Source: a virus. From it: a DNA stretch of 64,000 nucleotides. Below the pieces are notes generated by a model. It worked only from the letters and a program-made list of their open reading frames with translations, ran no database searches and was not told the origin of the DNA. Shown piece after piece: positions 1,411 to 52,443 of the stretch (positions are counted from its first letter, which is position 1; every line of letters starts with the position of its first letter). Location of the stretch: the IMG/VR virus record IMGVR_UViG_3300045988_159816, one strand, 5' to 3'. The translations under genes were made by a program, and so were the position numbers.

Positions 1411-1441
1411 TAAAGTACAAAATAAACAAGGGGGCTTTACA

Positions 1442-3827: not shown

Positions 3828-3921
3828 AACTATAGTCAAAGTTTTAAATGCAAGTATGAAAAATGCCTTGTACACATTTAAAACTTTACTAATATAAAAG
3901 TAATAAGGGGGCGTATAAAAA

Positions 3922-8969: not shown

Positions 8970-8983
8970 TAAATAAAGATATG

Positions 8984-9018
8984 AATGGGTATATCTTGGA
9001 TATACCCATTTTTATTGA
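8984..9018 (+). terminator. terminator-like hairpin in the 5' leader
   Basis: Perfect 12-bp stem aatgggtatatc/gatatacccatt with a 3-nt loop, then TTTTATT. It lies about 10 nt after the predicted start site and before the terminase-small RBS. Confidence 0.5.
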
Positions 9019-9031
9019 TAGGAGGAAAATC

Positions 9032-10864: not shown

Positions 10865-10876
10865 GGAGGTAGAATT

Positions 10877-14142: not shown

Positions 14143-14502
14143 ATGATGAAATTCACCACTAAAGAATATGATTCTGCTAAACATATTCTTGCGATTCCTG
14201 ATCATTATGTTGCTATCGCACGCACTGCTGCAAAAGCTACTGCTGCTGGCGGTATGGTAGTATCTGAAAATGGTCGATTTATTATCAAAGCTGGTACTGT
14301 CTATCCTGCAAATGATGCAACTGCAATCGGTCTTGTAATGCAAGATTACGATGTAACCGATAGTGATGCTTCTATGGCAATCATTATTCATGGTTTCGTT
14401 CGTGCAGATCGTTTGCCCGCAGTTCTGTCTGCAACAGCAAAACCTGTTTTGCCACAAATTACAGTAATCGCTGCAATTACAGATAGCGAAGAAGGAGAAT
14501 AA
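14143..14502 (+). CDS. hypothetical head-associated protein
   Basis: Ala-rich ORF lying between the scaffold and capsid genes. Confidence 0.45.
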   Translation: MMKFTTKEYDSAKHILAIPDHYVAIARTAAKATAAGGMVVSENGRFIIKAGTVYPANDATAIGLVMQDYDVTDSDASMAIIIHGFVRADRLPAVLSATAKPVLPQITVIAAITDSEEGE

Positions 14503-14504
14503 TC

Positions 14505-15590
14505 ATGGCATCTTATAGCATTTTTGATATTTTTGATTCTAAAGCAATTGCAGCCTATTGGACTGACGTCAATACTGCAATGAAAGATCCGATGATCGGT
14601 TCTACATTCTTTCCGGATACTCGTACTGCAAGTTTAGAGTTATCTTGGATTAAAGGTCGTAACAATCTTCCGATTGCTTTGCAACCTTCTGCTTTTGATA
14701 CTAAAGCAAGTTTGAGAGATCGTATCGGTGTAACCGAGATCTCAACTGAAATGCCGTTCTTCCGTGAAGCGATGCGTATCGGAGAAAAAGAACGTCAGGA
14801 TATTCAAAACTTGTTAGCTAAGGGTATTCCTTTTGCACAACCTACCATTGCTAGAGTATATGACGACATCACTAATCTTGTTGATGGTGCTCGTGTTCAG
14901 GCAGAACGTATGCGTATGAGTTTGTTAGTAAATGGTAAAATTTCGGTAACTGCCACTAAAGGTACTGGTCGTGACATTACTTATCAGTATAACTACGATC
15001 CCAATGGAGATTGGGCAAGTGATCACTCTGTTACTTTGGCAGGTAATGGTACTTGGACTGTAGCTAATAAAGCAACTTCTGATCCTATTGGGGATTTGTT
15101 AGATGCTAAAGAAGCTATGGCTGATCAGTATGGCATTACTTTAACTCGTGCTTTGATGACTACCAAAACACTTCGTAATATGTTAGCTTCTGAATCTATT
15201 AAGAAAGCTATGAATCCTTTGGGTGCTACTAGCATGATCTTGTTGGATACTGAAGCAAAACGGTATTTAGAACAACAGACTGGATTAACTATTATCACTT
15301 ATGATAAAATGTTCAAAGACGAAGAAGGCGTAGATCAGAAATTCTATCCTGATAATTATGTAACCTTACTTCCCAGCTATGCTGTCGGAAATACTTGGTT
15401 TGGTACTACTCCGGAAGAATATGATCTTATGAGTGGTAATACTAATGCTTCTGTTTCTGTTGTTGGTAGTGGTATTGCAATTACTACTATTAAAGAACCG
15501 CATCCTGTAAACGTGTTCACAGTTGTTGATGCAATCGCGCTTCCTTCTTTTGAACGCATGGATGATATCTATGTAATGAAAGTTGCATAA
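14505..15590 (+). CDS. major capsid protein
   Basis: 361 aa at the expected position. Confidence 0.7.
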   Translation: MASYSIFDIFDSKAIAAYWTDVNTAMKDPMIGSTFFPDTRTASLELSWIKGRNNLPIALQPSAFDTKASLRDRIGVTEISTEMPFFREAMRIGEKERQDIQNLLAKGIPFAQPTIARVYDDITNLVDGARVQAERMRMSLLVNGKISVTATKGTGRDITYQYNYDPNGDWASDHSVTLAGNGTWTVANKATSDPIGDLLDAKEAMADQYGITLTRALMTTKTLRNMLASESIKKAMNPLGATSMILLDTEAKRYLEQQTGLTIITYDKMFKDEEGVDQKFYPDNYVTLLPSYAVGNTWFGTTPEEYDLMSGNTNASVSVVGSGIAITTIKEPHPVNVFTVVDAIALPSFERMDDIYVMKVA

Positions 15591-15606
15591 TTTTTAGGAG
15601 GTCAGT

Positions 15607-15840
15607 ATGGCTAAGGTTAAAGTTCAATTTCCTATCACAGTGAAATATCAGCGTGTAATATATCCTCCATACACCAATATCCTTGCGGATACTGAAGATC
15701 TTCCGGACATGAAAAAAGCTGGAGCCGTTATTTTTGAAGAAGAATCTGTTGAAGAAAAGATTTCTGAAGAAGTAGTTGCTCCAAAAACAAGTAAATCTAA
15801 ATCCCAACGAAAGAATAAATCTGGACGTTTGGTAGAATGA
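15607..15840 (+). CDS. hypothetical head protein
   Basis: ORF with a GGAGG RBS. Confidence 0.5.
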   Translation: MAKVKVQFPITVKYQRVIYPPYTNILADTEDLPDMKKAGAVIFEEESVEEKISEEVVAPKTSKSKSQRKNKSGRLVE

Positions 15841-20041: not shown

Positions 20042-21754
20042 ATGGAAGTCAGGAACTCAATTCATTTAGATGATGGGATGTCACCTGTTCTCAGTAAGAT
20101 TTTAGCCTCGCTTCGTCTTACTTTAACGGCTTTAAATAGTACGCCGGGCGAAGCGGGTTTATTTAGGGCGGCACAACGAGATATTTCAAGAGCTAATCAA
20201 CTTTTGAATGGATTTAATAGCGAATTAAAACAATCACAAGATTTAATTCGTAATCTTGGATACCGAGATGATAATCCAATAGGTAACGTTTTTTCACGAG
20301 CAATGAATCCTTTGACTGAGTTAGTTGCTGGAGTTTATTTATTAAAATCTGCAATTGATGAAGTTGGAAGACTAACAACTCTTGGCGATAATTTAATGTT
20401 AAATCAGGCAAGATTAAATATTGTCAACGATGGATTAAGAACACAAGAAGAATTATCAAAAGCTATTTATGAATCGGCACAAAGATCCAGAGCAGATTAT
20501 TTAGCTACAAGTCGTGTTATTGGTCGTATGGGTATTCTTGCTGGACAAGCCTTTAATAATAATGATGAATTAATCGCTTTTACAGAATTAGTTAATAAAG
20601 CTTTCCTTGTTGGTGGTAGTACTCAACAAGAACAGAGAGCCGCTATGTACCAATTGACTCAAGCGATGGCATCAGGCAGACTTCAAGGTGATGAAATGCG
20701 TACCATTCGTGAATCTGCTCCCTTACTGAAAAAGGCAATTCAAAATTATATGGGTTTAGATGATGCTGCTTTTAAAGAGGCTCAAAAGAATGGTGAAATT
20801 ACAGCGGAAGTTATTAAAAATGCTGTATTTGCATCTTCAGATGAAATCCAAAATAAATTTAATGAAATTCCTATAACTTTTAGTCAAGCAATGACGATGG
20901 CAGGAAACTCCTTATTGACTAATATGGAAGACATATTTACTGGTATTAGTACAAATGGAGTTAGTATGATACAGACTCTAGTTAGTAATTTTGATATCCT
21001 TGCAGGTATACTAGGTTATATCGCTGGCGTATCACTTGTTATCTTAATTAGAAACCTAGTAGCTGCACTACCAGCTGCGGCGGCGTTGGCATTAAGTTTC
21101 ATTGCCATGAATTGGCAGGTCTTATTATTAGTTGCGGCTGTAATGGCACTGTTTAAATTATTTTTAGCTTTTCCTGAAGCGTTTGGTGTTTTAATTGGTG
21201 GTGTTAAAGCATTAGGAACAGCTTTTATGAACATGGTAAAATTAGTAGCTGATTATTTCTTAATGTTATTTAATGAAATAATTTTAAGAGGTATGAATTT
21301 TGTTCTTGATAAATTAGGTAAAGAAAAAATTCAAAATGTAGAATATTTTGGAATGGAAAGTGTTGGATTAAGTTATCTTGAAGGATACTCTAGCGGTAAA
21401 AAATGGGCAGAGGATACAGGGGTTAAATTAGATAACTTTATGACTGGAATGAAGAATACTTTCAATCCAAATACATCTGTTTTAGGCGGAACTGTTCCTA
21501 AACCAGTAACAGATCTTGATACTGTTGGCGAAGTTAAAAACATTAAAGGTGGTAAAATTAATCTTGATGACAATAGTATTCAATGGATAAAAGATGCTGG
21601 AGCTATAGAATTTGTAAATCGTTTTACAAATATGCGACCTATCTTGAAAGTTAATTTTGGGGACGTACATCAAACGGCGGATGTTAATGAAATTGCCGAC
21701 GCTATTGCAGATATGGTTGAAAATGCCGTTACAACATCTTTAGAGGGGGAATGA
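20042..21754 (+). CDS. tail tape measure protein
   Basis: 570 aa, helical with internal hydrophobic segments, after the chaperone pair. Confidence 0.7.
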   Translation: MEVRNSIHLDDGMSPVLSKILASLRLTLTALNSTPGEAGLFRAAQRDISRANQLLNGFNSELKQSQDLIRNLGYRDDNPIGNVFSRAMNPLTELVAGVYLLKSAIDEVGRLTTLGDNLMLNQARLNIVNDGLRTQEELSKAIYESAQRSRADYLATSRVIGRMGILAGQAFNNNDELIAFTELVNKAFLVGGSTQQEQRAAMYQLTQAMASGRLQGDEMRTIRESAPLLKKAIQNYMGLDDAAFKEAQKNGEITAEVIKNAVFASSDEIQNKFNEIPITFSQAMTMAGNSLLTNMEDIFTGISTNGVSMIQTLVSNFDILAGILGYIAGVSLVILIRNLVAALPAAAALALSFIAMNWQVLLLVAAVMALFKLFLAFPEAFGVLIGGVKALGTAFMNMVKLVADYFLMLFNEIILRGMNFVLDKLGKEKIQNVEYFGMESVGLSYLEGYSSGKKWAEDTGVKLDNFMTGMKNTFNPNTSVLGGTVPKPVTDLDTVGEVKNIKGGKINLDDNSIQWIKDAGAIEFVNRFTNMRPILKVNFGDVHQTADVNEIADAIADMVENAVTTSLEGE

Positions 21755-24004: not shown

Positions 24005-24402
24005 TACCGTCAAATCGTAACCTTATTGTTACTCAAATTGGACAAAATGAAGTTACAAGAACTTATAAAGTTGATTCTTATAATAAAAGAATTATTGGAA
24101 CAACTGATGGACAGCCTGCAATTGAACAAGCAATTTTAAAAAATTTTGATACAGAAAGATTTGCTTATGTTATTTATTCTAAAAATTATGGTATTGAATT
24201 AGAAAAATACATTGGTAAAGATTATGATTTTATTCGTTCAGATTTGCAAAGGGCAATAGAGGAATGTTTATTAGTTGATGCAAGAATTTATTCTATTAAT
24301 AATTTACAATTTACTCAAGAAGGTCTGGATTATATGTCAATTACAATGGATATAGAAACAGAACAAGGTGTTTTGACTACAACTTTAGAGGTGAAAAAAT
24401 GA
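24001..24402 (+). CDS. baseplate wedge protein, gpW/gp25-like (XkdS-position)
   Basis: Position and size. Confidence 0.45.
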   Translation: MIPSNRNLIVTQIGQNEVTRTYKVDSYNKRIIGTTDGQPAIEQAILKNFDTERFAYVIYSKNYGIELEKYIGKDYDFIRSDLQRAIEECLLVDARIYSINNLQFTQEGLDYMSITMDIETEQGVLTTTLEVKK

Positions 24403-25571
24403 ATGCACTTTCAACCTATTTAGAAAAATATTCATATGATTATATTTTATCTGAAGCACTAAAACAAGTTCCGGACACTGTGGATAAACGTGAAGGTGCT
24501 ATTATTCGAGATGCTTTGGCTCCTTGTTGTTATGAGGCAGCGAAGGCTATTTTGTATCTTGCAGATATTATCGAACAAACTTATGTAGCAACTGCAAATG
24601 GACTTTGGCTGGATGGTCGTGTTTTAGAGGGTGGAATTACTCGAGATCCTGCTACATATTCTAAAAATTTAGGTGTTTTTAAAGATCAATTAGGTAATCC
24701 TGTTCAAATTTCTATCGGACAAACTTTCTCGACTGTAGGAGATACCATTTTAAATTATGTTTGTGTACAGGTTTATGTGGATGAAAATGGGGATGTAGTT
24801 CCCGGAAGTTATGTATTACAATGTAATACTATAGGGTCTGTTGGTAATAGTTATATAGGTAGAATCGTTCCTAATGATTATATTGAAAAACTTGCTAGCG
24901 CTGAAATAACAAGTTTATTATATCCCGGCGAAGAAGAAGAAACAGATGAATCTTTACGTGAACGATATTTAGGTAATATGTTAAAAACAGCTTTTGGTGG
25001 TAATGTTGCACAGTATAGACAATGGGCAAAAGAAATTGCAGGTATTGGTGGAGTTCAGGTTTATCCTGTTTGGGCAGGTGGTGGAACAGTTAAATTGAGT
25101 ATTATTGATACGGATTATAATCCGGCTTCTACAGAATTTTGTCAAACTATTTTAGAAATGTTTGATCCAGAAAATTCCGGAGTAGAAAATACTCGTGGAT
25201 TAGGTTTAGGTATCGCTCCAATAGATCATAAAATGACAATATCAACTCCTTTACCAAGAACTATCAATGTATCTGGAAAAATCACATTATTACCCGGATA
25301 TAAATTAGAAACACTATTACCTAAAATTAAAGAATCTATTTCTAATTATCTATTAATGTTAAGACAACATTGGGAAGATAGTGACGAACAAAATAATTAT
25401 TCAGTTATTGTATATTTGGGCAGAATTACAGTTGCTATTTTAAGTGTTGAAGGTGTATCAAGTGCTTATGAATTAAAACTTAATGATACTGATACTGATG
25501 TTGTTTTAACAGAAACAAGTTCTTTACAGGAAGTTCCTGTTTTAGGGTCGGTGAATTTCATTGAACAATAA
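24399..25571 (+). CDS. baseplate J-like protein (XkdT-position)
   Basis: 390 aa at the expected position. Confidence 0.6.
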   Translation: MNALSTYLEKYSYDYILSEALKQVPDTVDKREGAIIRDALAPCCYEAAKAILYLADIIEQTYVATANGLWLDGRVLEGGITRDPATYSKNLGVFKDQLGNPVQISIGQTFSTVGDTILNYVCVQVYVDENGDVVPGSYVLQCNTIGSVGNSYIGRIVPNDYIEKLASAEITSLLYPGEEEETDESLRERYLGNMLKTAFGGNVAQYRQWAKEIAGIGGVQVYPVWAGGGTVKLSIIDTDYNPASTEFCQTILEMFDPENSGVENTRGLGLGIAPIDHKMTISTPLPRTINVSGKITLLPGYKLETLLPKIKESISNYLLMLRQHWEDSDEQNNYSVIVYLGRITVAILSVEGVSSAYELKLNDTDTDVVLTETSSLQEVPVLGSVNFIEQ

Positions 25572-26490
25572 AATTTATAATCGAACTGGGTTATATAGGA
25601 CAAGAATTGGTCGTTATTTTCCAAAATATTATGAAGGTATTTTGGAAACAGATGAACTAATTAAAGTTGAAAATGATATTTGGAATAACATTTATAATTT
25701 GATTGTAAAAGCTAAAAGAAATCAATTTATTGCTTATGCAGATGAAGATGGAATTTATGCTTATGAACAATTATTCCAAATAGTTTCAGATCCCACTACT
25801 GAAACATTAGAAGAAAGAAGATTTAGACTACTTAATAGAGTACAAACATTGTCTTATTATACAATGAATTTTCTTCGCGAAAAATTAGATAATTTATTTG
25901 GCGTGGATAATTATGAAATCCAAATGGATTATCCAAATAGAACATTATATGTCAAGAGTAATTTTTCAAATTATTTTGTTTACAATGAAACGATTGCATT
26001 AATTCACAAAATAAGACCAGCCAATATGGTTTTTGTTAATGTACCTTTAATTCCGTCAACAGTTGAAGTTGGAGAAGAAATCTATCAACAAAAATGGTGG
26101 TGGAATTATATTTTAGGTGGTAAATGGAAAGTCGGTGAAAAACCGATTATTAGTGTACAGGAATTGGCTAAATTAAAATCAGAGGAGGTACAATCCTTGA
26201 CGCCTTTAATGCTTAATAAATTAAAAGAATTTACAGCAGAAACAATTCAAGCTGTGCTAATCAATGATACCTATAAGGTAACAACATTCGTTCAAAAAAT
26301 TATTACTGGTGGGTATTTAAGAATCCAGTATAATATTGAAAATTGGGAACAAATAAAATTAATTACTAATATTAAATTTTTAGACGCTGAAGGATTTATT
26401 TTATCAAATAATGCTGTGTATATTCCAGTGGCTTCAGATACAATGATTGAACACAGAATTAATATTCGGGAGGTTACTTCAAATGGCTAA
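25561..26490 (+). CDS. tail protein (XkdU-position)
   Basis: Position. Confidence 0.4.
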   Translation: MNNKIYNRTGLYRTRIGRYFPKYYEGILETDELIKVENDIWNNIYNLIVKAKRNQFIAYADEDGIYAYEQLFQIVSDPTTETLEERRFRLLNRVQTLSYYTMNFLREKLDNLFGVDNYEIQMDYPNRTLYVKSNFSNYFVYNETIALIHKIRPANMVFVNVPLIPSTVEVGEEIYQQKWWWNYILGGKWKVGEKPIISVQELAKLKSEEVQSLTPLMLNKLKEFTAETIQAVLINDTYKVTTFVQKIITGGYLRIQYNIENWEQIKLITNIKFLDAEGFILSNNAVYIPVASDTMIEHRINIREVTSNG

Positions 26491-27391
26491 TATTATAATG
26501 CAAATTACTGATTACATTGCTCATTTATGGCATAACACATCTGATGATATTGTAATGGCTGAAAATATTAATGGTTGGGAAGATACATTACAACAACATT
26601 CACAATTCTTAAAAAGATTTTCTTGGCAACCGAATACTACTTATCTAAAAAATTCAGTATTACTTTATCCATTCGGATTACATACTAAATTAGTATCTAA
26701 AAACGCTGGTACAAGTGGCAGCGTTGAGCCTACATGGTCAGAGGCTACAGGGGTAGAAGGTTCAAGAACAATTCAGGATAATGATATTGTTTGGGAAGAA
26801 CAACCTATTCAAATATCTTCAGATACTACACCAGTGGGAACCATTAAACAGCAGCTCTGGAACTCAGCACCTCCTGGATATTTAAAACTTGATAAAAGTG
26901 TAATTCTAAATAGATCCGAATATCCGGAATTGTGGGATTTTGTTCAAAAATATATGCCTTTAACTACAGAGGTTGAATGGCAAAAGATGTTGACTCAAAA
27001 TGGGACTTCCGTTGGTTTCTTTTCACAAGGCGACGGCTCTACTACTTTTAGAACACCAATTATGATAGATTTTGGTCGTGGTGGCTCCTCTGCTGGTGCT
27101 TTCTTTAAAGACCAAAATAAACTCCATAACCATACGGCTAATATTGATACTACCCCCGCACAGGGTAGCTTCAGGTTGTGGAAATTTGATCCTGCCGCTA
27201 CTGGTGTATTCTCATCAAGTTATTTAGGAAGATGGGCAAACAGTAAAAACGGCGGTGATGATGCAATGTATCAAATTAATTTTAATCTTGCAAATGCTTT
27301 AAATAACATTACAATCGCTTCTTCGGGAGGATCTGAAGGGTATCCGAAACACGTTACAATGCCATTTTACTTGAGAACTTTAAATATTTAA
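26483..27391 (+). CDS. tail fiber protein with a tail-collar domain, and a C-terminus encoded in an invertible segment
   Basis: Collar motif FFSQGDGSTTFRTP. The last 86 codons lie between perfect inverted repeats. Confidence 0.7.
   Translation: MANIIMQITDYIAHLWHNTSDDIVMAENINGWEDTLQQHSQFLKRFSWQPNTTYLKNSVLLYPFGLHTKLVSKNAGTSGSVEPTWSEATGVEGSRTIQDNDIVWEEQPIQISSDTTPVGTIKQQLWNSAPPGYLKLDKSVILNRSEYPELWDFVQKYMPLTTEVEWQKMLTQNGTSVGFFSQGDGSTTFRTPIMIDFGRGGSSAGAFFKDQNKLHNHTANIDTTPAQGSFRLWKFDPAATGVFSSSYLGRWANSKNGGDDAMYQINFNLANALNNITIASSGGSEGYPKHVTMPFYLRTLNI
27099..27132. repeat. left inverted repeat (34 bp) inside the tail fiber gene
   Basis: ctttctttaaagaccaaaataaactccataacca. Its exact reverse complement lies at 27642-27675. 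Confidence 0.85.
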
Positions 27392-27641
27392 TGTTCTTAA
27401 ATAGTAAGGCATAATGATATGTTTAGGATAGGCTTCTGATCCACCACTATCACTCATGTTTAAATCGTGGGAGTGTGTACCATTAAAGTTGACAACTTCA
27501 CGAGCATCACCTTTATGAGCACAACTACCAGCCCATTGACCAGTTCTGGAAAATACTCCTGTTGTTCGACCTGAATCTTGTCCAACTTGTTGAGCTGCAA
27601 TAAAACTACCTGTTAAACTTTTAGATTGGATGCTTCCAGAG
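27133..27641. mobile_element. putative invertible segment carrying two alternative, convergent tail-fiber C-terminal cassettes (Mu G-segment-like)
   Basis: The minus strand read inward from 27641 is an 87-codon frame in phase with the left repeat. It ends ...YPKHIIMPYYLRTLNI*, against the forward ...YPKHVTMPFYLRTLNI*. The two cassettes meet at the palindrome ttaaatatttaa. Confidence 0.65.
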
Positions 27642-27675
27642 TGGTTATGGAGTTTATTTTGGTCTTTAAAGAAAG
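27642..27675. repeat. right inverted repeat (34 bp)
   Basis: tggttatggagtttattttggtctttaaagaaag, the reverse complement of 27099-27132. It overlaps the RBS of the next gene. Confidence 0.85.
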
Positions 27676-27684
27676 GAGTATAAA

Positions 27685-28869
27685 GTGATTAAATTTAGAA
27701 TATTCAATCAACGATTAAGTTATTATGGAGATTCTGAAGTAGTTGCAGATAGTAAAGGATATTTAACATTTACACTTGAAACCTCTGAAGATTGGGCTAA
27801 TTATGTAGGTAAGACTGTACAATTTACAAGGGACGGAAAAACTTACAGTGTAACCAATATTTCAGACGGCGTAGAGTATGTTGTTCCTTGGGAAGTCCTT
27901 GTTGGTGCAGGAGTAATGCAAGTAAATGCGTTCGCTGTATCAATGGTGGGAAGTAAAAGAGCAACTACAAATGAAATCCAAATAGAGGTTATAGACAGTG
28001 GATTTAATCCGGACGATCTAGAACCAACAGATCCAACTCCTGATATTTTTGAACAGTATGTTCAACAAGTTCAGGAAAATGCAGATAAAGCAGAACAAGC
28101 GGCTAAAGATGCAAAAGATTCTGCGGATACTGCGCAAGAATTAAAAAACAAAATTGATACTATTTATCAAAATGTTAAAGATATTAAGAGTGACATAGAA
28201 GATTTATTAGAACAAGTACAGAATTACGCTAATAATGCCTATCAATATGCAGAAGCCGCTAAATTATCTGCACAACAAGCTTCAAAATCTGAAACAGAAG
28301 CAGGTCGATATGCAGGCGAAGCAAAGGTATTTTCTCAAAATGCTAAAGAATCAGAAAATAATGCTAAAATCAGCGCAGATTCTGCTAAAGAATCAGAAAA
28401 TAATGCTAAAATCAGCGCAGATTCTGCTAAAGGTAATGCAGAATTAGTCTTAGCGACTAAAGAAGAGATAGATACTATTTATGCAAATATCGAAATAATT
28501 AAAGCGGATATTGATAATAAGTATACACAAATTAATTCACAAGCAGATTCAATAAATTCGATGTATACTCAAATACAAGAATGGTATAATTCTTTTTTAC
28601 AATCAGCTTCTTATATAAATTTTACAGATGAAGTTTCTGAAGATTTATGGAATGCAGACGAAAATGATTATACTCTATCTCTTGATACATCAGGAAGGGC
28701 TATTTTAAATATTCAAATGTTGGATACGAATGGATTATACACAAGAAGTCCTTTTGTAGATATGGAATTTCCTGATGACGTTAGTGTAACAATCAGGGCT
28801 ATTGCTCCTTTTACTGGTAGACTATGCTTATACGAATTAATGAAAGGAAGCGAAACTAATGCTCAATAA
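27685..28869 (+). CDS. tail fiber protein
   Basis: 394 aa, GTG start after GAAAGGAG, containing a tandem 14-aa repeat. Confidence 0.6.
   Translation: MIKFRIFNQRLSYYGDSEVVADSKGYLTFTLETSEDWANYVGKTVQFTRDGKTYSVTNISDGVEYVVPWEVLVGAGVMQVNAFAVSMVGSKRATTNEIQIEVIDSGFNPDDLEPTDPTPDIFEQYVQQVQENADKAEQAAKDAKDSADTAQELKNKIDTIYQNVKDIKSDIEDLLEQVQNYANNAYQYAEAAKLSAQQASKSETEAGRYAGEAKVFSQNAKESENNAKISADSAKESENNAKISADSAKGNAELVLATKEEIDTIYANIEIIKADIDNKYTQINSQADSINSMYTQIQEWYNSFLQSASYINFTDEVSEDLWNADENDYTLSLDTSGRAILNIQMLDTNGLYTRSPFVDMEFPDDVSVTIRAIAPFTGRLCLYELMKGSETNAQ
28342..28425 (+). repeat. perfect 42-bp tandem duplication inside the tail fiber gene
   Basis: The unit gctaaagaatcagaaaataatgctaaaatcagcgcagattct occurs twice, encoding AKESENNAKISADS twice. 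Confidence 0.8.
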
Positions 28870-29413
28870 AATTAGTCAAGTTATTTCTGGATTATCCCTA
28901 ATCAAATTTATTAATTCTGTTATAGATGGCATAAACGCTCATTTATCTGATTATAATAATCCTCATAAAGTAACAGCGGCTCAATTAGGTTTATCTAATG
29001 CGTATAAATATAAGGGTAGTGTTGAAACTTATGAGGATTTACCAACATCAGCTGAAAGTGGTGATGTTTATAATGTTGTTAAAGGTGATAAAGAACAAGG
29101 TATTGCAGATGGAGCAAATTTTGCTTGGGACGGTACTAAATGGGATAATTTAGGCGGGTTATTAACTGGTACAGGTGCAATTAGGGTTGAATTTGTGGCT
29201 GCAAGTTGGCAAATTAATTCTTCCACTAATTTATATGAACTTCCATTAAATCTTTTTGAACAAGTGGAAAGTGTTGGTGTTTTAAGTGTTGAGGCTGTTG
29301 AAAATAATGAAAGACATAGCGTTTTAATCGACACTATTGGGAATAAAGTAGTTGCTTTAAATGCTTTTGATGGTGCTATTTATTATACAACTTTTCGGGA
29401 GGTAACACAATGA
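28859..29413 (+). CDS. hypothetical tail fiber-associated protein
   Basis: ORF between two fiber genes. Confidence 0.5.
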   Translation: MLNKISQVISGLSLIKFINSVIDGINAHLSDYNNPHKVTAAQLGLSNAYKYKGSVETYEDLPTSAESGDVYNVVKGDKEQGIADGANFAWDGTKWDNLGGLLTGTGAIRVEFVAASWQINSSTNLYELPLNLFEQVESVGVLSVEAVENNERHSVLIDTIGNKVVALNAFDGAIYYTTFREVTQ

Positions 29414-31245
29414 AAAAAATTTCTCGCCAGCAAGATGTAACAGTAGCTAATGTTTTAAGATGTTTAAATGAATTAAATGATGAAAATATGGTTTATGTCG
29501 GAACAGAACCTCCGGAAGAAGTTAAAAAAGGATTAATATGGGTAAATCCAGAAGAAATAACAGAAGAACCTGAAAAAATTTATGTTGGTCATATGGTTGG
29601 GGATATCTATCCTGTTAGTTATACCGAATTAGAATCGGGTCAATTAGTATTAAAAGGTCAGTTAGTTAGTCGTGAAATTTATGGTGTATTATGGGCATGG
29701 TTGCAAAAACACCCTAGTTTACTAATAACAGAACAAGAATATACCGAATATTTAAATTCCTCAGAAAATTTATGTTGTCCTTATTTTAGCACAGGAACAA
29801 CAGAAAATAATTTCAGATTACCTAATTATAATGGCGTATTCTTTAAAGCAACTAATGATACTTCTAAAATTAACGAATTTGAAACTGATAAACAGAGAAA
29901 TATAACTGGTAGCTATGTTCAACTAGCTACCAGTTGGGATGATGGTGGAAGAGGTGTAATATCATTTTCAATGTCAGGAGCTTATTCTTCTACAGATGGT
30001 GGTACAACTAATGACAGTATACATCAGGATCCCAGTGATAGGACAGGTATAACAATAGATTTCGACGCCTCTCGTTCCGTCGGAACTGAGCACACTGGCA
30101 GCGAAGTTAAACCTAAAAGTCTTAATCAGGTATGGGTAGTTCAAGCTTTCGGAGTAATCACTAATGCAAGTTCCCTTGATATCTCTGTTTTAGAACAACA
30201 AATACAACAAATTACAGATTATAGCAATTATGAAGTTTCGTGTATTAAGAATAATCCAGTTTATTACAATAGAGATCAATTATTTTATTCTAATAAAACA
30301 AATATCACAATTCCAAAAAATCTAAAAATAAACATTGATGGAGAATGTTATATAAGTACCATTAATAAAGTTCTTCAATTATCCACTGTAGACACTCCTC
30401 AAAATTTAGCCGGGAAAGATGTTTACATTTATGCTTGTAAACCTCAAGATATTTCTTCTACAGAGCCAATTTTCATTTTGTCTTTAAATAGTACAGTGCC
30501 CACAGGTTATACTGCAAGTTCTAGCCGTAAAATAGGTGGATTTCATTGTTTATGTGCAGATGTTGGTACAATAGATGGACATACTTTATCCGGATATGTT
30601 ACTGGAGATATTTTACCCGCATCAATTTGGGATTTACTACACAGACCTAAAGGAGATTCAGAAGGACTTGCTTATGATGAAGTTTCTGAATGTTGGTTAA
30701 GTATTTATCAATTAAGTTGGGACGGCACTAAATTAGTCAGTGTTTATAATGGAGTTATTGCAGATGGTACTTCAACTAAAAAATGGCATGGTGAAGCTTT
30801 TATTGAACAATTAATGAATCAAAAAATGCGATTACCTTGGCGACATGAATTTCAGATGGCGGCAAAAGGAAGTAATGAAGGAACATCAATTAAGAATGCA
30901 GCAGATCCTAATACTACAGGTGGTCATGTAGATAGTAACAATAGAAGAATGATTAGTAATATTGGATTAGAAGATTGTTGTGGCTGTTCTTGGCAATGGG
31001 CTATGGATTTAGGCTTTGCAGGGGGATCAGGATGGAATGATTCTGTTTATAATTCCAATGTTGATTCTCAAAGATATGGTCAGTCTTATGGTACTTTATA
31101 TCGTTTGCTCCTGGGCGCTTGCTGGTATAGCGGTTCGTATTGCGGTTCTCGTTCTGTCGCTTGTCATTCTGGCTCGTCTAGTGTCATTTCCGCTTACTCT
31201 GCGCGCGGTGCGTCGGAGCCGAGGGTTGTCACGAATTTAAACTAA
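29410..31245 (+). CDS. tail fiber and receptor-binding protein, the DGR target
   Basis: N-terminal tail-collar motif (YPVSYTELESGQLVLKGQLVSREIYGVLW). The C-terminal 38 codons form the variable repeat, a Cys/Ser/Tyr-rich lectin-like tail. Confidence 0.8.
   Translation: MKKISRQQDVTVANVLRCLNELNDENMVYVGTEPPEEVKKGLIWVNPEEITEEPEKIYVGHMVGDIYPVSYTELESGQLVLKGQLVSREIYGVLWAWLQKHPSLLITEQEYTEYLNSSENLCCPYFSTGTTENNFRLPNYNGVFFKATNDTSKINEFETDKQRNITGSYVQLATSWDDGGRGVISFSMSGAYSSTDGGTTNDSIHQDPSDRTGITIDFDASRSVGTEHTGSEVKPKSLNQVWVVQAFGVITNASSLDISVLEQQIQQITDYSNYEVSCIKNNPVYYNRDQLFYSNKTNITIPKNLKINIDGECYISTINKVLQLSTVDTPQNLAGKDVYIYACKPQDISSTEPIFILSLNSTVPTGYTASSSRKIGGFHCLCADVGTIDGHTLSGYVTGDILPASIWDLLHRPKGDSEGLAYDEVSECWLSIYQLSWDGTKLVSVYNGVIADGTSTKKWHGEAFIEQLMNQKMRLPWRHEFQMAAKGSNEGTSIKNAADPNTTGGHVDSNNRRMISNIGLEDCCGCSWQWAMDLGFAGGSGWNDSVYNSNVDSQRYGQSYGTLYRLLLGACWYSGSYCGSRSVACHSGSSSVISAYSARGASEPRVVTNLN
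31103..31217 (+). repeat. DGR variable repeat
   Basis: 115 bp matching the template repeat except at 20 positions, all of which are A in the template. Confidence 0.9.
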
Positions 31246-31278
31246 TGACCGAGGGAACTATTTTACGAGGAAAACGGT

Positions 31279-31300
31279 GGCTAGTATGAAATACTAGCCA
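31279..31300 (+). promoter_or_regulatory. hairpin downstream of the variable repeat (candidate DGR homing element)
   Basis: ggctagtat-GAAA-atactagcc, a 9-bp stem with a 4-nt loop, about 35 nt after the stop. Confidence 0.5.
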
Positions 31301-31368
31301 AAGCTAACTTTTTAGTGTATAATATTAATTAGGTTAATGTATTTTTCAGTAGCTGGCGGTTTTTTCGG

Positions 31369-31483
31369 GTTTGCTCATGGGCGCTAACTGGAATAACAGT
31401 TCGAATTGCAGTTCTCGTTCTGTCAATTGTAATAATGGCTCGTCTAATGTCAATTCCAATTACTCTGCACGCAGTACGTCGGA
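31369..31483 (+). repeat. DGR template repeat
   Basis: Intergenic copy of the variable repeat, rich in AAC and AAT codons in the corresponding frame. Confidence 0.9.
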
Positions 31484-31593
31484 TACGGGGAAAATTAGCA
31501 GGTGCGGCTAACCCTCGGCTGATACATTGACCTTGCTGAAAAGCAAAATACGAAAAAGGGTGAAGCAGTGGTTAGTAGTTAATTCGAACGTCA

Positions 31594-32640
31594 TTGCTTC
31601 AATTTTTAATAATGAAAAGACATAATAATTTATTTGACAAAATTGTAGACAAGGATAATCTTTTGTTAGCGTATAAAAAAGCTAAAAAACATAAAAGCTG
31701 GCAACAAAAAGTTATTCGTGTTGAAAAAGATTTGGATAATTTAATTGAAGAATTAAGATTAAGTCTAATTAATGGTACTTACAAAACAGCTGAATACAGA
31801 ACAAAGAAAATTTATGAACCAAAAGAAAGAACAATTTATGTACTTCCATTTTATCCAGATCGCATTGTTCATCACGCTATAATGAATATTTTAGAACCTA
31901 TATGGGATAACCTTTTTATTTCTGATAGTTATGCTTGTAGAAATGGTAAAGGTCAACATAAAGGAAGTCAAAAATGTATGGAATTTGTTCGCAAAAATAA
32001 GTATTGTTTAAAATGTGATATTAGTAAATTTTATCCATCTATAAATCATGAAATATTAAAATTAATTATTCGTAAGAAAATAAAATGTAAACGCACTTTA
32101 AATTTATTAGATACCATTATTGATAGTATTGATGGAGAAACAAATATTCCTATTGGTAATTATCTTAGTCAATGGTTTGGAAATTTATATTTAAACGAAT
32201 TAGATATGTTTATGAAACATGATAATAAAATTAAATGTTATATTCGTTATTGTGATGATTTTCTTTTATTTTCTAATGATAAAGCTTTATTAAAAGAAAT
32301 GGCTATTAAAATCAAAGATTATGTTGAAAATATTTTAAAATTAAGATTAAGTAAATGTAATTTATTCCCGACTTCTCAGGGAATAGATTTTTTAGGTTAT
32401 AGGCATTTTTCGTCTGGATATATTCTTGTTCGTAAAACTACAGCTAAAAGAATGAAGAAAAGAATCCGGAGATTAAAATGGGAATTGGCTAAAAAGAAAA
32501 TTACTAATGATAGAGCTTTATCTGTTATTGGAAGTATTTCGGGCTGGTTAAAATGGGCTAATACATATAACCTTCAAATATCCTTACAACTAAATGAATT
32601 AAAAGAATCTATAGGAGGTTCTGTTAATGAACAAATTTAG
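31594..32640 (+). CDS. DGR reverse transcriptase
   Basis: Motifs IGNYLSQ (the DGR-type IGxxxSQ) and RYCDDFLLF (YxDD). About 340 aa. The true start may be the ATG at 31612. Confidence 0.9.
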   Translation: MLQFLIMKRHNNLFDKIVDKDNLLLAYKKAKKHKSWQQKVIRVEKDLDNLIEELRLSLINGTYKTAEYRTKKIYEPKERTIYVLPFYPDRIVHHAIMNILEPIWDNLFISDSYACRNGKGQHKGSQKCMEFVRKNKYCLKCDISKFYPSINHEILKLIIRKKIKCKRTLNLLDTIIDSIDGETNIPIGNYLSQWFGNLYLNELDMFMKHDNKIKCYIRYCDDFLLFSNDKALLKEMAIKIKDYVENILKLRLSKCNLFPTSQGIDFLGYRHFSSGYILVRKTTAKRMKKRIRRLKWELAKKKITNDRALSVIGSISGWLKWANTYNLQISLQLNELKESIGGSVNEQI

Positions 32641-32908
32641 TGATTTTGCCGAAGAAAAATTTATCGGCGAAAAGATTAAAATATCAAAAGTGTTGAATAA
32701 AGAAATTAAAGTTTTAGCTTTTCAAGTTAAGAAAAGTAAAATTGAAAAAGATGGTTTTTATATTCAAATGCAAATAGAAGTAGACGATGAAAGAAAAGTC
32801 TTATTTACTAATTCAAGTGTATTAAAAGACCAACTTGAAAAGTATAAAGATAACCTTCCATTTATCACTACTATTATCCAACCAAAGAAATATTTTTCAT
32901 TTAGTTAG
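32627..32908 (+). CDS. hypothetical basic protein (possible DGR accessory protein)
   Basis: Lys-rich 93 aa directly after the reverse transcriptase. Function not shown. Confidence 0.45.
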   Translation: MNKFSDFAEEKFIGEKIKISKVLNKEIKVLAFQVKKSKIEKDGFYIQMQIEVDDERKVLFTNSSVLKDQLEKYKDNLPFITTIIQPKKYFSFS

Positions 32909-32918
32909 GAGGATTATT

Positions 32919-33218
32919 ATGTATGGCTATCCAAAAGCACTAAAAACAAAAGAAGATTATGAATATGTTCGTAATTATTTTCCAAAAGAACTTTGGAAAA
33001 AAGATTTTCAGGCTTTATTAGATACTCAATATGATTGGTTTTTTATTGATAAACTACTAAAAAATGAAGAGGTTGTTTTAAAGAAAAATCAAAGAATTGA
33101 GTATAATGAAGAATTAGATGAAAGATACTTATACGAATATAAGTATAATCCTAATTGTAAATTAGCTACTATTGGTTATTCAGAAGAAGAAGTACAATCA
33201 ATTTTACAGGAGGATTAA
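32919..33218 (+). CDS. hypothetical protein
   Basis: ATG after AGGAGG. Trimmed from the track ORF starting at 32835. Confidence 0.5.
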   Translation: MYGYPKALKTKEDYEYVRNYFPKELWKKDFQALLDTQYDWFFIDKLLKNEEVVLKKNQRIEYNEELDERYLYEYKYNPNCKLATIGYSEEEVQSILQED

Positions 33219-33220
33219 TC

Positions 33221-34825
33221 ATGGCAGATGTAAAAATTTATGACGGCGAAAAATTTGTAAACTTTAACATATCAAATGGTATTGAATTACCTGTAGGATT
33301 TGAATACTATGTACCTTATTCAGAATTAGATAGTGGTCAATTAATTCGTGATGGACAAATTGTAAGTCGTAGTGTTTATAAAGATTTATGGGATTTTGTT
33401 CAAAAGCATCCGTCTTTATTATTGACCGAGGAACAATGGCAAGCTGAATTATCTGCTAATGAAGGAATAGTAAATAATTATTATTCTTCGGGTGATGGTT
33501 CAACTACTTTTAGATTACCTAAAGCTGGAGTTATTGAATTACCTGTTATCACAGCTGAAGGACTTAATAAATTTAGTACGGATAGTTTTAAATCTCATAA
33601 TCACGAAAATATAACAGAGCCTATTAGTGGAAAAATATTAAATCCTATATATTGGAATACTACTGATAATGGTGCAATATTAAATAACGCAAATATTAAA
33701 TCTCAAAACTCTGGCTCTCTTACTCCTTATTTTGCGCCACTATCAGGAACTAATATAACTAATGTTGGAGGAACAGAAACTAAACCTAAAACAATAACTA
33801 AATTAGCTGTAGTTCAAGCCTTTGGTAGAGTTATAAATACAGGTACTTTAGATATTAATGATTTGGTAAACGATGTAAATAACTTAATTCAATCTAATCA
33901 TATTAAAACCTATACAGATTTAACTCAAATTGGCTTAACTAATGGAATTGAGCAATTCCAGGATATTGGTAAAAACTTGCCTGAAAATTCTCAAATAACT
34001 TATCGAGTTTGGGAGAAAGATAATCATAATCACGTCCTTTATCCTAGTATAAGTGGAATATTCACAATGGAAAAAGCAATAACATTTTGCAGATGTTTTT
34101 ATAATAGTATAACACCTAATAAACAATGGCAAATGGCTTTTGATTATCGTGATGAATTTTACATTGAACCAACTTGGGAATTATTAGCAAAAAATAATAA
34201 ATTGAGTATGCCTTCTAATAACAAGATAATTATTAATTTAAAAAATCAGGGAGATTCCTGGACAGCTCCCTGTGATGGTTATATATGGGGAATGAAAATT
34301 GGGGGTAGTGATGTTGTAAACAGTTGGTTAAATGTTTGGGACTCTACTGATGCAGATACAAGTAATTATGGCACTTTGATTTATTGTGATTATGGTCAAC
34401 CATATATTAATTTATGCGGTAATTTAGCTGTACGAAAAGGGCAAACTGTTTATTTTAACTGGAATAATAATTGTAGAGTATATTTTTATCCAGCTTTAAA
34501 TAATAATATGCCTGTTTATGGTGAGGATGTAAGAATTTACATCAAAGCTATTAATATAAATGGTTATCCAGTTAAGGGAGCTAATGTTGAGATAACAATA
34601 TCTTCTGGCCATACAGAAAATGGAAAAACTAATAATGATGGTAGATATTTACTATCCTACGCTGGTTATAAGAAGATAAAAAATGCAAATATAAGTTCAG
34701 GCGATATGCCTAAAGTGATGGATGTTAAAGTATCAAGCAACGAAGGAAGTGACGTACTCACACTTTATAATTTAGAAGAATTACAAGAAAATAAAATTTA
34801 TGATTTAGAAATACACATTGTATAA
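33221..34825 (+). CDS. tail fiber protein with a tail-collar domain
   Basis: The motifs YSELDSGQLIRDGQIVSRSVYKDLWDFV and GDGSTTFRLPK match the collar domain. Confidence 0.65.
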   Translation: MADVKIYDGEKFVNFNISNGIELPVGFEYYVPYSELDSGQLIRDGQIVSRSVYKDLWDFVQKHPSLLLTEEQWQAELSANEGIVNNYYSSGDGSTTFRLPKAGVIELPVITAEGLNKFSTDSFKSHNHENITEPISGKILNPIYWNTTDNGAILNNANIKSQNSGSLTPYFAPLSGTNITNVGGTETKPKTITKLAVVQAFGRVINTGTLDINDLVNDVNNLIQSNHIKTYTDLTQIGLTNGIEQFQDIGKNLPENSQITYRVWEKDNHNHVLYPSISGIFTMEKAITFCRCFYNSITPNKQWQMAFDYRDEFYIEPTWELLAKNNKLSMPSNNKIIINLKNQGDSWTAPCDGYIWGMKIGGSDVVNSWLNVWDSTDADTSNYGTLIYCDYGQPYINLCGNLAVRKGQTVYFNWNNNCRVYFYPALNNNMPVYGEDVRIYIKAININGYPVKGANVEITISSGHTENGKTNNDGRYLLSYAGYKKIKNANISSGDMPKVMDVKVSSNEGSDVLTLYNLEELQENKIYDLEIHIV

Positions 34826-34837: not shown

Positions 34838-34866
34838 TTGACAAAATAAAAGAAATATACTATAAT
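34838..34866 (+). promoter_or_regulatory. promoter of the lysis cassette (TTGACA-17-TATAAT)
   Basis: Consensus hexamers with a 17-nt spacer. Confidence 0.6.
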
Positions 34867-37358: not shown

Positions 37359-37446
37359 TATAATAATTACAGGTAATAACCCCTGCGGGGTGTTAAAAAA
37401 GTTTAATATCGTCCAAATATGGTGGCGGTATAGGGAGGACAAATGT

Positions 37447-37980
37447 ATGTATCCAACTAATTACATGAATCCAATGAATAATCAGCCAATGAGTCCGGAT
37501 TATGGTTATAATCGTATGCAACAAGTACAGCAAATGCAACAAGCAATAAATCCTACTGTTCCAAATATGTTTGGTCAGATGAATCAAATGAATAATATGA
37601 ATCAACAACAGCAAACACCGTATATTTCAGCGATTCCTGTTACTTGTTTAGATGAAGCGAAAGCCGCAAGAATTTCTTTAGATGGCACTTTAAGTGTTTT
37701 TATTAATATTCAAGATGGTGAAATTTATACTAAACAATTAAACATGAATGGTTTGGCAGAATTAAAAACTTATAAATTAGTCAACCCACAAGAAAACAAG
37801 GTTGAATATATTACTTCAGATACCTTTAATGGTTTAGACCAACGTGTTCAAAATATTGAACAATTATTAGCAAGTATAGGAGGAAATAATCATGAATCCA
37901 ATGCAAATGTTACAAGTATTCAACCAAATACGAGCGATGCAAAATCCTCAACAAGGAATGGAGCAAATGTTCGGAAGTAA
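37447..37980 (+). CDS. protein with a Q/N/M-rich low-complexity N-terminus
   Basis: ATG after GGGAGG. The first 70 aa are dominated by Q, N, M and P. Confidence 0.45.
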   Translation: MYPTNYMNPMNNQPMSPDYGYNRMQQVQQMQQAINPTVPNMFGQMNQMNNMNQQQQTPYISAIPVTCLDEAKAARISLDGTLSVFINIQDGEIYTKQLNMNGLAELKTYKLVNPQENKVEYITSDTFNGLDQRVQNIEQLLASIGGNNHESNANVTSIQPNTSDAKSSTRNGANVRK

Positions 37981-38176: not shown

Positions 38177-38839
38177 ATGGCATTCGAAGGGGCTCAAATG
38201 GTTCCGGTTTACGACATGAATAAGTCTGACAACGCTGGTATGATGGGCGGCGGAGCTGGCTGGATGTGGGTAATTATGTTATTCTTCCTGCTTGCTTGGG
38301 GCGGCTTCGGCGGCGGTGGATTTGGTGGTGCTAATGGCGCTGTCAATACATTGACTAACGAATTTCTTTATACCAACTTGAACAACACTTTGGATCGTGG
38401 ATTCAACCAGTTGGCTAATCAAAACTTTGGTATCCAACGTGATATCTGTCAATCCACTGGTGCTATCCAAATGGGTATGTGTCAAGGATTCAATCAGACT
38501 AACGCTGCAATAGCTGAAAGTCGTTTTGCTGCTCAGCAATGCTGCTGCGAAACCAATCGCAACATTGATGCTGTTCGTGCAGAAAACTACAAAAACACTT
38601 GTGAAATCACTACTGCAATTCATGCAGAAGCTGAAGCAACTCGTGCTTTGATGACTGCAAATGTAATGCAAGAATTGCGTGATCAGTTACAGGCAGCTCA
38701 ATTGCAACTTGGTAACCTTTCTCAAACTCAAAACATTATCAACGCAGTTCGTCCGTTCCCGCAGCCCGCTTATATCACTTGCAGTCCTTATACATCTGTA
38801 AATGGTTTCGGTTGTGGCAATGGTTGCGGAATTGTCTAA
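38177..38839 (+). CDS. membrane protein with Gly-rich and Cys-rich segments
   Basis: TM helix WMWVIMLFFLLAW, a GGFGGGGFGG run, CCC and a C-terminal CGNGCG. Confidence 0.5.
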   Translation: MAFEGAQMVPVYDMNKSDNAGMMGGGAGWMWVIMLFFLLAWGGFGGGGFGGANGAVNTLTNEFLYTNLNNTLDRGFNQLANQNFGIQRDICQSTGAIQMGMCQGFNQTNAAIAESRFAAQQCCCETNRNIDAVRAENYKNTCEITTAIHAEAEATRALMTANVMQELRDQLQAAQLQLGNLSQTQNIINAVRPFPQPAYITCSPYTSVNGFGCGNGCGIV

Positions 38840-52250: not shown

Positions 52251-52254
52251 TAAT

Positions 52255-52443
52255 ATGAACTGTTTAAAAGGTGAAATTATCAAAGAAATGGAAGCTAAAG
52301 CTAAAAGGGCTATTGACCAAAAAGAATATACAATGGGCAATGTTTTAGTCAATGCAGAACAGTTATTAAGCCTTATTTATGAAGTTAAAGTAAAAAGATA
52401 TCATAATCATATTAAACCAGGAGGAAAGAAATGTACACAGTAA
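52255..52443 (+). CDS. hypothetical small protein
   Basis: ORF. Confidence 0.4.
   Translation: MNCLKGEIIKEMEAKAKRAIDQKEYTMGNVLVNAEQLLSLIYEVKVKRYHNHIKPGGKKCTQ

Follow-up and report, generated by a model that had tools for sequence, protein, structure and literature searches.

The IMG/VR virus record IMGVR_UViG_3300045988_159816 is a 64,000-nt stretch of DNA (the window, to which all positions refer unless another contig is named) and contains a tail fiber locus at positions 26483–34825. The locus comprises five structural genes, starting at 26483, 27685, 28859, 29410, and 33221, and combines an invertible gene end with a tandem duplication and a diversity-generating retroelement (DGR). An initial annotation made from the sequence alone described an inverted repeat, a 42-bp duplication, and a DGR, and all three were found where it had placed them. 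It counted four fiber genes instead of five, and a single gene between the invertible gene and the DGR target, where there are two (27685 and 28859). Related loci and genomes from other metagenomes are designated by L-numbers.

Fiber gene A (26483–27391, + strand), in the form expressed in the window, encodes a 302-residue protein composed of a constant body and a C-terminal tip A. Gene callers place its start at the ATG at 26483, and the mechanical open reading frame (ORF) begins at the TTG at 26447. The protein has PHROG tail fiber matches, and its residues 138–203 match the L-shaped tail fiber of T5 (PDB 8hqz, E = 1e-13). The end of the gene lies in a segment bounded by a perfect 34-nt inverted repeat. 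The left, expression-side arm (27099–27132) and the right, silent-side arm (27642–27675) enclose 509 nt, so that the invertible segment is 577 bp long in total. The arm pair is the only long perfect inverted repeat of the window, and 100 shuffles gave no matches even with up to three mismatches allowed. At the same tolerance, exactly two copies of the arm are present in the window.

The left arm encodes (A)FFKDQNKLHNH in the frame of fiber gene A, which is the end of the constant body. It is followed by tip cassette A (27133–27391, + strand), the 85 residues of which (TANIDTT...YLRTLNI and a stop) are joined to fiber gene A in the window. The minus strand reads from the right arm through the same eleven residues, FFKDQNKLHNH, into the silent tip cassette B (27380–27641, − strand), which by translation has 86 residues (SGSIQSK...YLRTLNI and a stop). 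The two tips are convergent and homologous, with 51% identity over 63 residues (E = 7e-20). Tip A terminates in YPKHVTMPFYLRTLNI and tip B in YPKHIIMPYYLRTLNI, each followed by a stop, and the cassettes overlap tail to tail near the center of the segment. The overlap is a perfect 12-nt palindrome, TTAAATATTTAA (27380–27391), in which both strands specify Leu-Asn-Ile-stop. Tip B has neither a start codon nor an upstream frame of its own and is therefore silent until the segment is inverted. The right arm adjoins the Shine-Dalgarno sequence and the GTG start codon of the next gene (27685), and thus this gene sets the outer limit of the repeat.

The segment is found in both orientations. Among 16 related loci with both arms, two (L005 and L013) have the orientation of the window, and in twelve (L001–L004, L009–L012, and L014–L017) the interior is reverse-complemented at 95–100% identity, with tip A at the silent position. 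Locus L018, which is cut after the left arm, also shows the orientation of the window. In every locus, the outer flanks of the arms are constant and the inner flanks are swapped, which places the crossover inside the arm. The window and L002 have opposite orientations and differ by eight single-nucleotide polymorphisms (SNPs) in 3.76 kb of flanks, corresponding to 0.2% divergence, and by none in the 509-nt interior. Several divergent backgrounds carry orientation A, and every pairing of orientation with one or two 42-bp units of the neighboring gene is represented. In a second clade, the fiber A of which is 68–82% identical, the arms contain three synonymous changes, the second cassette is different, and both orientations occur again. 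An independent collection contained three A and two B contigs of the main clade and, from the second clade, four contigs directly expressing A (seven if those covering only the silent side are included) versus four with C. Protein clusters sharing the same body comprised 234 member sequences with tip A (P0001) and 214 with tip B (P0006, 303 residues), and the tip B form is also expressed as P0007 in other assemblies.

The orientations could instead be old fixed alleles or artifacts of assembly, that is, a historical inversion polymorphism that exists together with a DGR and without present switching. The evidence comes from assembled contigs, and those of Logan (k = 31) are interrupted at every 34-nt repeat, whether or not the population is heterogeneous. 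However, the MEGAHIT assemblies used k-mers of 95–141 nt, which exceed the 34-nt arm, and the assembler therefore could not have flipped the segment by mistake. The contig of L018, assembled at k = 127, ends exactly 93 nt beyond the arm. Since 34 + 93 = 127, this contig stops where the graph containing both orientations merges. A 64,185-bp IMG/VR contig begins and ends with an arm and lacks the interior. Such contig ends at the arms show that both orientations coexist within a sample. Fixed alleles are also difficult to reconcile with opposite orientations at 0.2% flank divergence without a single interior SNP, with orientation A on divergent backgrounds in every combination with the repeat copies, and with the recurrence of both orientations in the second clade. 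We consider this explanation highly improbable. The inversion is live and occurs among near-identical natural genomes. In a few genotypes the arms are mismatched, with A in one arm and G in the other at arm position 23 in L029, and with C at position 11 of one arm and C at position 25 of the other in L033 and L075. No flipped partner of these genotypes was retrieved, which made mapping of the crossover impossible.

The second device in the locus is the DGR. Its target gene (29410–31245, + strand) encodes a 611-residue homologue of Mtd (Pfam mtd_2nd, 2.6e-22) with the variable repeat (VR) at the C-terminus. By sequence homology, residues 319–603 match residues 87–376 of BPP-1 Mtd (PDB 1yu0, also 2iou; E = 7e-18), and the additional N-terminal part of approximately 290 residues is homologous to the neighboring fibers. 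The 122-nt core of the VR (31103–31224, + strand) is 81% identical to the template repeat (TR; 31369–31490, + strand), which contains 29 adenines and 11 AAY codons in the frame of the target. Counted in register over the 122-nt core, the repeats differ at 21 adenine and two non-adenine positions. When ten flanking nucleotides are included, 25 differences are located at TR adenines, and the five others are at or beyond the 3′ boundary. The 3′ ends of the repeats, GGAGCCGAGGG in the VR and GGATACGGGGA in the TR, differ in the same way in all loci, a difference that may correspond to IMH and IMH*. The reverse transcriptase (RT) gene (31612–32640, + strand; 342 residues from the ATG at 31612) matches RVT_1 (1e-17) and PHROG 1423 (3e-118). 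The protein contains the DGR-clade motifs IGNYLSQ at residue 181 and YCDD at residue 213, and its full length matches the 328-residue reverse transcriptase of PDB 8ub7 (E = 4e-52), which we take to be BPP-1 bRT.

Fifteen loci contained 15 different VRs versus four TR variants, which differ from each other at up to five positions. Each of these VRs has 14–25 differences at A sites and 2–5 elsewhere. The scaffold of L003 has a run of N within the VR. The turnover of VRs among near-identical natural genomes shows that the DGR is live. The idea that two diversification devices share one fiber locus is thus borne out by the two orientations of the segment and the 15 VRs in 15 loci. The initial annotation would have been contradicted by a dead inversion remnant together with an inactive DGR; instead, both orientations and VR turnover were seen. 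In the course of diversification, the TR RNA would be reverse-transcribed with adenine-specific errors, and the product would then replace the VR at the C-terminus of the Mtd homologue. By our recount, the TR could give rise to roughly 10^16 or more protein variants; a tally of approximately 10^17.8 also counts codons beyond the VR.

A conserved hairpin, GGCTAGTAT-GAA-ATACTAGCC (31279–31299), with a 9–10-bp stem, begins 55 nt after the VR core and is a candidate for the target-recognition hairpin of the DGR and/or a terminator. The spacing between the VR and the hairpin is larger than in BPP-1. In the search for an Avd gene, no ORF was found in the 120 nt between the VR and TR or in the 120 nt between the TR and RT gene, and the two small ORFs after the RT gene have no Pfam match. 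Avd is common but not universal in DGRs. The first of the two ORFs (32627–32908, + strand) encodes a 93-residue protein, the AlphaFold model of which (pLDDT 78) consists mostly of β-strands and has no PDB fold match at E < 0.01. It was rejected as Avd because of its predicted β-rich structure and the lack of a fold match, and is possibly a DGR accessory protein; tblastn did not detect it in L014, L029, and L031, which lack the DGR. The second ORF (32919–33218, + strand; 99 residues) travels with the DGR block.

The gene that follows the invertible segment encodes a 394-residue coiled-coil fiber protein (27685–28869, + strand) with PHROG tail fiber matches at residues 118–323 and a Pfam Alanine_zipper match. 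As the initial annotation had reported, it contains a perfect 42-bp tandem duplication (28341–28424, + strand), scored as 2.2 copies with 100% matches. The 14-residue unit consists of two heptads, SAKESENNAKISAD, and a 21-bp sub-period is visible. A single copy, giving a 380-residue protein, is present in L001, L002, L004, L005, L009, L013, and L016, and two copies, giving 394 residues, in the window, L003, L010, L011, L012, L014, L015, and L017. Loci L001 and L010 contain one and two copies, respectively, and have no SNPs over 3.76 kb. The change in copy number is thus shown to occur among near-identical natural genomes. Because the unit comprises two heptads with a 21-bp sub-period, the change keeps the register of the coiled coil. 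Gain or loss of a unit would lengthen or shorten the fiber by two heptads.

The adjacent gene (28859–29413, + strand) encodes a 184-residue protein with the N-terminal fiber motif NPHxVT..QLGL and PHROG tail matches at residues 14–75. It is present in the DGR-bearing loci examined, as a 49-residue remnant in L012, was not detected in L014, L029, and L031, where the DGR is missing, and moves with the DGR block. In L012 (positions 14461–15609 of that contig), a deletion has fused its first 49 residues to residues 259–611 of the Mtd homologue, giving a product of 382 residues; the VR and the DGR are retained. The last fiber gene of the locus (33221–34825, + strand) encodes a 534-residue protein with PHROG tail fiber matches, including the "tail collar fiber protein" 523, and a weak Pfam Collar match. 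Its length ranges from 523 to 535 residues, and its distal part is 55–77% identical among genomes that are otherwise at least 97% identical. The distal part is exchanged for divergent alleles, and this allelic replacement is a fourth route of variation.

Tail-collar motifs had been assigned to three of the genes (26483, 29410, and 33221), and this holds only at the level of motifs. The three proteins share a region covered by PHROGs 6921, 13173, 4849, and 327, with cross-matches of 44–54% identity, and the shared motif DGSTTFR(T/L)P and PHROG 523 support a collar relationship at the motif level. The assignment does not extend to the Pfam Collar domain (PF07484), which is absent from 26483 and 29410 and below threshold in 33221 (residues 85–100, E = 0.0046, 17.3 bits versus a cut-off of 24).

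The observations are best explained by a receptor-binding locus of an apparently virulent myophage with a genome of approximately 66 kb, abundant in human guts, in which several independent mechanisms of variation are stacked. We assign a probability of roughly 0.6 to this explanation as a whole. By analogy, inversion, VR turnover, and changes in copy number probably alter the host range.

An enzyme that inverts the segment was sought across most of the genome. In relatives of the phage, the end of the window connects to its start via 2.18–2.49 kb of small ORFs, and therefore the genome is approximately 66.3 kb long and the window represents almost all of it. No serine or tyrosine recombinase was recognized in this genome by tblastn, Pfam, PHROGs, or precomputed Pfam annotation. 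The best tblastn hit with Hin and γδ resolvase had an E-value of 0.34 and was located inside a clamp-loader-like gene. Resolvase and Phage_integrase Pfam domains were absent from the scanned ORFs and called genes, which cover most of the genome, and no invertase gene adjoins the segment. The Pfam and PHROG scans covered most ORFs of at least 150 residues, the exception being a 514-residue ORF at the portal position (10877–12421), which was not scanned; the large terminase was identified by tblastn alone. Precomputed Pfam annotation of called genes of relatives covered the tail, lysis, and replication regions as well as the 2.2–2.5 kb outside the window. The designation of the inversion as site-specific in the initial annotation is thus supported as far as the inversion itself, seen in near-identical genomes, and not in its site-specific nature, as no invertase was found in the genome.

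The phage could encode an invertase from a family so divergent or so new that Pfam and PHROGs fail to recognize it. Four ORFs (816–1328, 1841–2398 on the minus strand, 8981–9592, and 56348–56869) have no match at all, three more (5521–6207, 37390–37980, and 38177–38839) match only PHROGs of unknown function, and the low-complexity protein encoded at 46762–47625 has no family match. None of these ORFs adjoins the segment, however, and the catalytic domains of serine and tyrosine recombinases are normally easily detected. The ORF at 8981–9592 occupies the position of a small terminase, and the product of 46762–47625 is an acidic and basic low-complexity protein. Outgroup loci without the cassette (L051 and L052) were compared only locally and give no correlation between the presence of the cassette and that of a candidate gene. 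An invertase of the phage's own is, in our view, improbable.

The arms do not resemble the recombination sites of known invertases. Their best matches to hix, gix, and cix cover 11–12 of 26 positions, which is no better than those of shuffled sequences (fraction at or above the observed value 0.64–0.88). The only weak dyad in the arms (7-8-7) is lost in the second clade. The segment also differs from a shufflon in having two cassettes, two arm copies, and no adjacent tyrosine recombinase.

Based on these results, a mechanism of tip exchange can be proposed. The constant body of fiber A ends in FFKDQNKLHNH, and the 34-nt sequence that encodes these residues recurs in inverted form 509 nt downstream. 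A crossover within the arms would flip the segment and splice the other tip onto fiber gene A. The flip may be made by general or short-homology recombination, or by template switching during replication on the 34-nt repeat. The candidate enzymes, none of them a dedicated invertase, are the phage's own RecA-family recombinase (57421–58581, + strand; Pfam RecA 2.8e-37), a RecU-like Holliday-junction resolvase (55873–56358, + strand; Pfam RecU 2.6e-6), a Cas4-like PD-(D/E)XK nuclease (55080–55871, + strand; PHROG match), and the single-stranded DNA-binding protein (SSB). PHROGs 1706 and 1990 cover the pair formed by the nuclease and the RecU-like resolvase. We give the proposal that phage machinery of this kind, and not a dedicated invertase, flips the segment slightly less than an even chance.

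Several lines of evidence favor it. The genome contains the required kinds of enzymes, namely RecA, the RecU-like resolvase, the Cas4-like nuclease, and SSB. Changes in the number of 42-bp units need no site-specific enzyme, and the unit is as polymorphic as the orientation of the segment. The 3-nt loop of the hairpin at 31279–31299 is GAA in the window and most relatives, and its exact reverse complement, TTC, in L015, L027, L035, and L037. Such a mini-inversion suggests that, in this phage lineage, stems mediate flipping without a recombinase. Furthermore, the three synonymous differences between the clades are present in both arms and are spread over 10 bp, which indicates that at least 10 bp were converted from one arm to the other. 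Exchange within the 2–8-bp overlap of a site-specific reaction would not give such a concerted pattern. The lack of a conserved dyad and of above-shuffle similarity to hix, gix, or cix also supports flipping by general machinery. More tentatively still, we propose that a virulent phage splices its receptor-binding tips in a reversible and programmed manner without a dedicated invertase, the arms being kept perfect by conversion between them and by selection.

Other considerations weigh against recombination by the general machinery of the phage. A length of 34 bp is short for RecA-type recombination. The perfect arms and their sharp outer boundary, identical in two clades, would equally fit a site-specific system. 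The G segment of Mu likewise has 34-bp repeats, and asymmetric sites exist, such as the sfx sites of the shufflon. The concerted changes in the arms could arise by the acquisition of a new cassette with the arm as a homology anchor. Finally, one of the eight ORFs of at least 150 residues that have no informative annotation could encode an unrecognized recombinase.

The perfect conservation of the arms is also compatible with a site-specific recombinase of the host, a "master" invertase of a low-GC Firmicute, that flips the segment in trans at arms that mimic or contain its own site. In line with this possibility, no invertase was found in the phage, and the arms are perfect in every locus of the first clade examined (22 loci), whereas the interior shows up to 5% variation. 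Global invertases, Mpi and RecV among them, work on many loci. Bacterial invertible regions without a nearby recombinase are known (PMC9881135). However, the phage looks strictly virulent: it has its own replisome and lacks an integrase, and a search of 185,579 species-representative bacterial genomes gave no relatives. A host enzyme would therefore be limited to the infection cycle. The arm sequence has no matches in the same genomes; together with the lack of fiber A relatives there, this leaves neither an invertase-bearing prophage relative nor a host site. No dyad symmetry of the arms is conserved between the two clades, and the synonymous changes concerted over 10 bp also oppose such an enzyme. 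We regard inversion by a host enzyme as the main rival explanation, although less likely than recombination by the phage's general machinery, which we prefer.

Neither device is present in all relatives of the phage. The outgroups L051 and L052, with fiber A 55–57% identical, have neither the silent cassette nor the DGR, with the next gene immediately after fiber gene A. An intact DGR accompanies the invertible cassette in the window and most loci. The cassette occurs with a truncated DGR in L032, where only RT residues 1–97 were detected, and without any DGR in L014, L029, and L031. The reverse combination, a DGR without the cassette, is found in the L037 lineage, where fiber A is an unrelated 327/328-residue form. 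The DGRs of L032 and L037 are visibly decaying; in L037, only RT residues 195–340 were detected, and the 88 nt between the target gene and the RT fragment are too short for a TR. Judged from this gene content, both devices are accessory, are gained and lost independently, and do not depend on each other. The initial annotation suggested that comparison of related phages would reveal which device was acquired first. The comparison uncovered the independent gain and loss of both and gives no order of acquisition.

In the sister lineage L036/L037 (positions 10001–10975; protein clusters P0013–P0120), the 327/328-residue fiber A has an unrelated, non-invertible C-terminal domain. This form is divided into very many near-singleton clusters at 90% identity, with variation at a few scattered positions. 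A role as a second DGR target was not supported, as there is no TR-like repeat in L036 or L037.

The window has a G+C content of approximately 31%, and nearly every gene is on the plus strand. Head and contractile-tail genes are present, and fiber gene A follows two baseplate genes identified by Pfam, a Baseplate_J gene (24399–25571) and a Mu gp48-like gene (25561–26490). An amidase gene lies 3′ of the locus. A perfect sigma-70 consensus promoter (TTGACA, 17 nt, TATAAT) occupies positions 34838–34866, between the last fiber gene and the lysis genes, which start at 34880. The replication and recombination genes encode an SNF2 helicase, DnaB, primase, SSB, PolA, clamp, clamp loader, RecA, the RecU-like protein, and the Cas4-like nuclease. 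In exact-protein look-ups, very many human-gut assemblies carry this phage on contigs of 61–68 kb, and the assembly collection has index entries for the baseplate protein in 1,340 blocks.

The phage genome contains no integrase gene. A profile search with fiber A found no relatives in the 185,579 species-representative bacterial genomes, and megablast of the locus found no similar phage among 50,697 GenBank phages. The terminase is similar to those of Firmicute phages, and protein searches matched only distant Firmicute-phage terminases and fragments of Burkholderia P2-like fibers. Thus, no cultured relative or host was found. The absence of an integrase, of relatives in bacterial genomes, and of similar phages in GenBank suggests that the phage is virulent and uncultured. 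The contigs OIYW01000024.1 (L066 and L079; 115,199 bp) and NODE_75 of ERZ772854 (113,939 bp) span approximately 1.7 genome lengths and include two copies of the locus, both facing the same way. They have the appearance of concatemer-type assemblies of a circularly permuted genome, without visible host flanks.

Several features outside the fiber locus were also observed. Approximately 2.5 kb at 1330–3900 have no called gene in the window or in relatives and a G+C content of 27–28%. A TTATTAGTAATWATTA-like motif recurs several times in the region, in both orientations, together with 39–59-nt repeats at 3533–3771, and the region could serve as an origin or for early regulation. No matches were obtained in Rfam and tRNA scans of the window, this region included. 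A gene cluster at 50650–54004 encodes a tRNA-guanine-transglycosylase/DpdA-like protein, QueC, QueD/PTPS, radical-SAM QueE, and GTP cyclohydrolase I. This 7-deazaguanine cluster suggests that the phage DNA is hypermodified. The 287-residue protein encoded at 46762–47625, between primase and SSB, has long acidic and lysine-rich low-complexity tracts, and its length varies between 268 and 310 residues among copies that are otherwise 91–98% identical. We rejected it as an annealing protein or recombinase because of this low-complexity acidic and basic sequence. Insertions of selfish endonucleases are present in some relatives. In L007 (11620–14238), the SNF2 helicase gene is enlarged to 894 codons, with a faint LAGLIDADG match and an intein-like appearance. 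Genome L026 contains an additional NUMOD4/HNH_3 endonuclease gene at 20248–21017.

The invertible segment resembles those of Mu (G/Gin), P1 and P7 (C/Cin), p15B (Min), and e14 (Pin), in which short inverted repeats are likewise located inside a tail fiber gene. In these systems too, a constant N-terminal part is combined with one of two C-terminal parts from opposite strands, and both orientations occur in populations. Unlike in the Mu/P1-type systems, there is no Gin/Hin-family invertase adjacent to the segment or in the genome, and the arms do not resemble gix, hix, or cix. The segment is only 577 bp long, with tips of 85 and 86 residues that overlap in a palindromic stop, and contains no genes for fiber-assembly chaperones (U/U′). 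The carriers of the known systems are temperate enterobacterial phages, whereas the phage described here is apparently virulent and has a low-GC gut host.

The DGR shares with that of BPP-1 a Mtd-homologous target with a C-terminal VR, an RT homologous to bRT over its full length, and adenine-specific substitutions in AAY codons. The constant difference at the 3′ ends and the hairpin downstream of the VR may be further counterparts. It differs from the BPP-1 arrangement (Mtd, Avd, TR, and Brt) in lacking an Avd gene and in having the 93-residue β-rich and the 99-residue proteins encoded after the RT. The target also has the extra N-terminal part of approximately 290 residues that is related to the neighboring fibers.

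Receptor-binding distal ends recombine in the Rin shufflon of Bifidobacterium and Eggerthella prophages and in BV01-like Phocaeicola phages, with all configurations detectable (PMC8778435, PMC13596623). In E. lenta, a shufflon and a DGR occur in different prophage clades and not in one genome (PMC8778435). The recombinase gene is adjacent to the BV01-like shufflons (PMC13596623). Multiple cassettes, short directional motifs, and a recombinase gene nearby characterize the gut-prophage shufflons, whereas the locus described here has two cassettes, a single repeat pair, no recombinase, and a DGR. Isomerization without a recombinase is known from the L and S segments of herpesviruses, the inverted repeats of chloroplast genomes, and hairpin-loop flips. 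Recombinase-free isomers elsewhere involve repeats of hundreds to thousands of base pairs and large blocks, without a coding effect at the junction. In contrast, the 34-nt repeat described here is intragenic and splices alternative protein ends. In Anabaena cyanophages, isomers of approximately 30 kb coexist, and no dedicated invertase was identified (bioRxiv 10.64898/2026.02.14.705889).

Each of the two devices is known by itself, as inversion of the Mu G/P1 C type and as a BPP-1-type DGR. What is new is that they share a locus in an apparently virulent phage and that population evidence shows both to be active. New as well is an invertible fiber cassette without an invertase in the genome, in a compact tail-to-tail design with a shared palindromic stop. 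The initial annotation considered the combination rare. In the open-access literature, we found no description of a phage with both a DGR and an invertible fiber, which is not proof of rarity.

A two-state switch, a hypermutator, a length polymorphism, and allele swapping are thus found together in a single receptor-binding locus. Because each of these elements is present or absent in different lineages, the locus makes it possible to compare the use of coarse switching with that of fine diversification. The phage is widespread in human-gut metagenomes, and the features of the locus cause short-read assemblies to end at predictable positions, with consequences for gut-virome catalogues. If the segment is indeed flipped without an invertase, a nearby recombinase gene is not a required flag for programmed inversions. 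Screens for invertons and phase variation that require a recombinase would then miss a class of such switches, especially in virulent phages.

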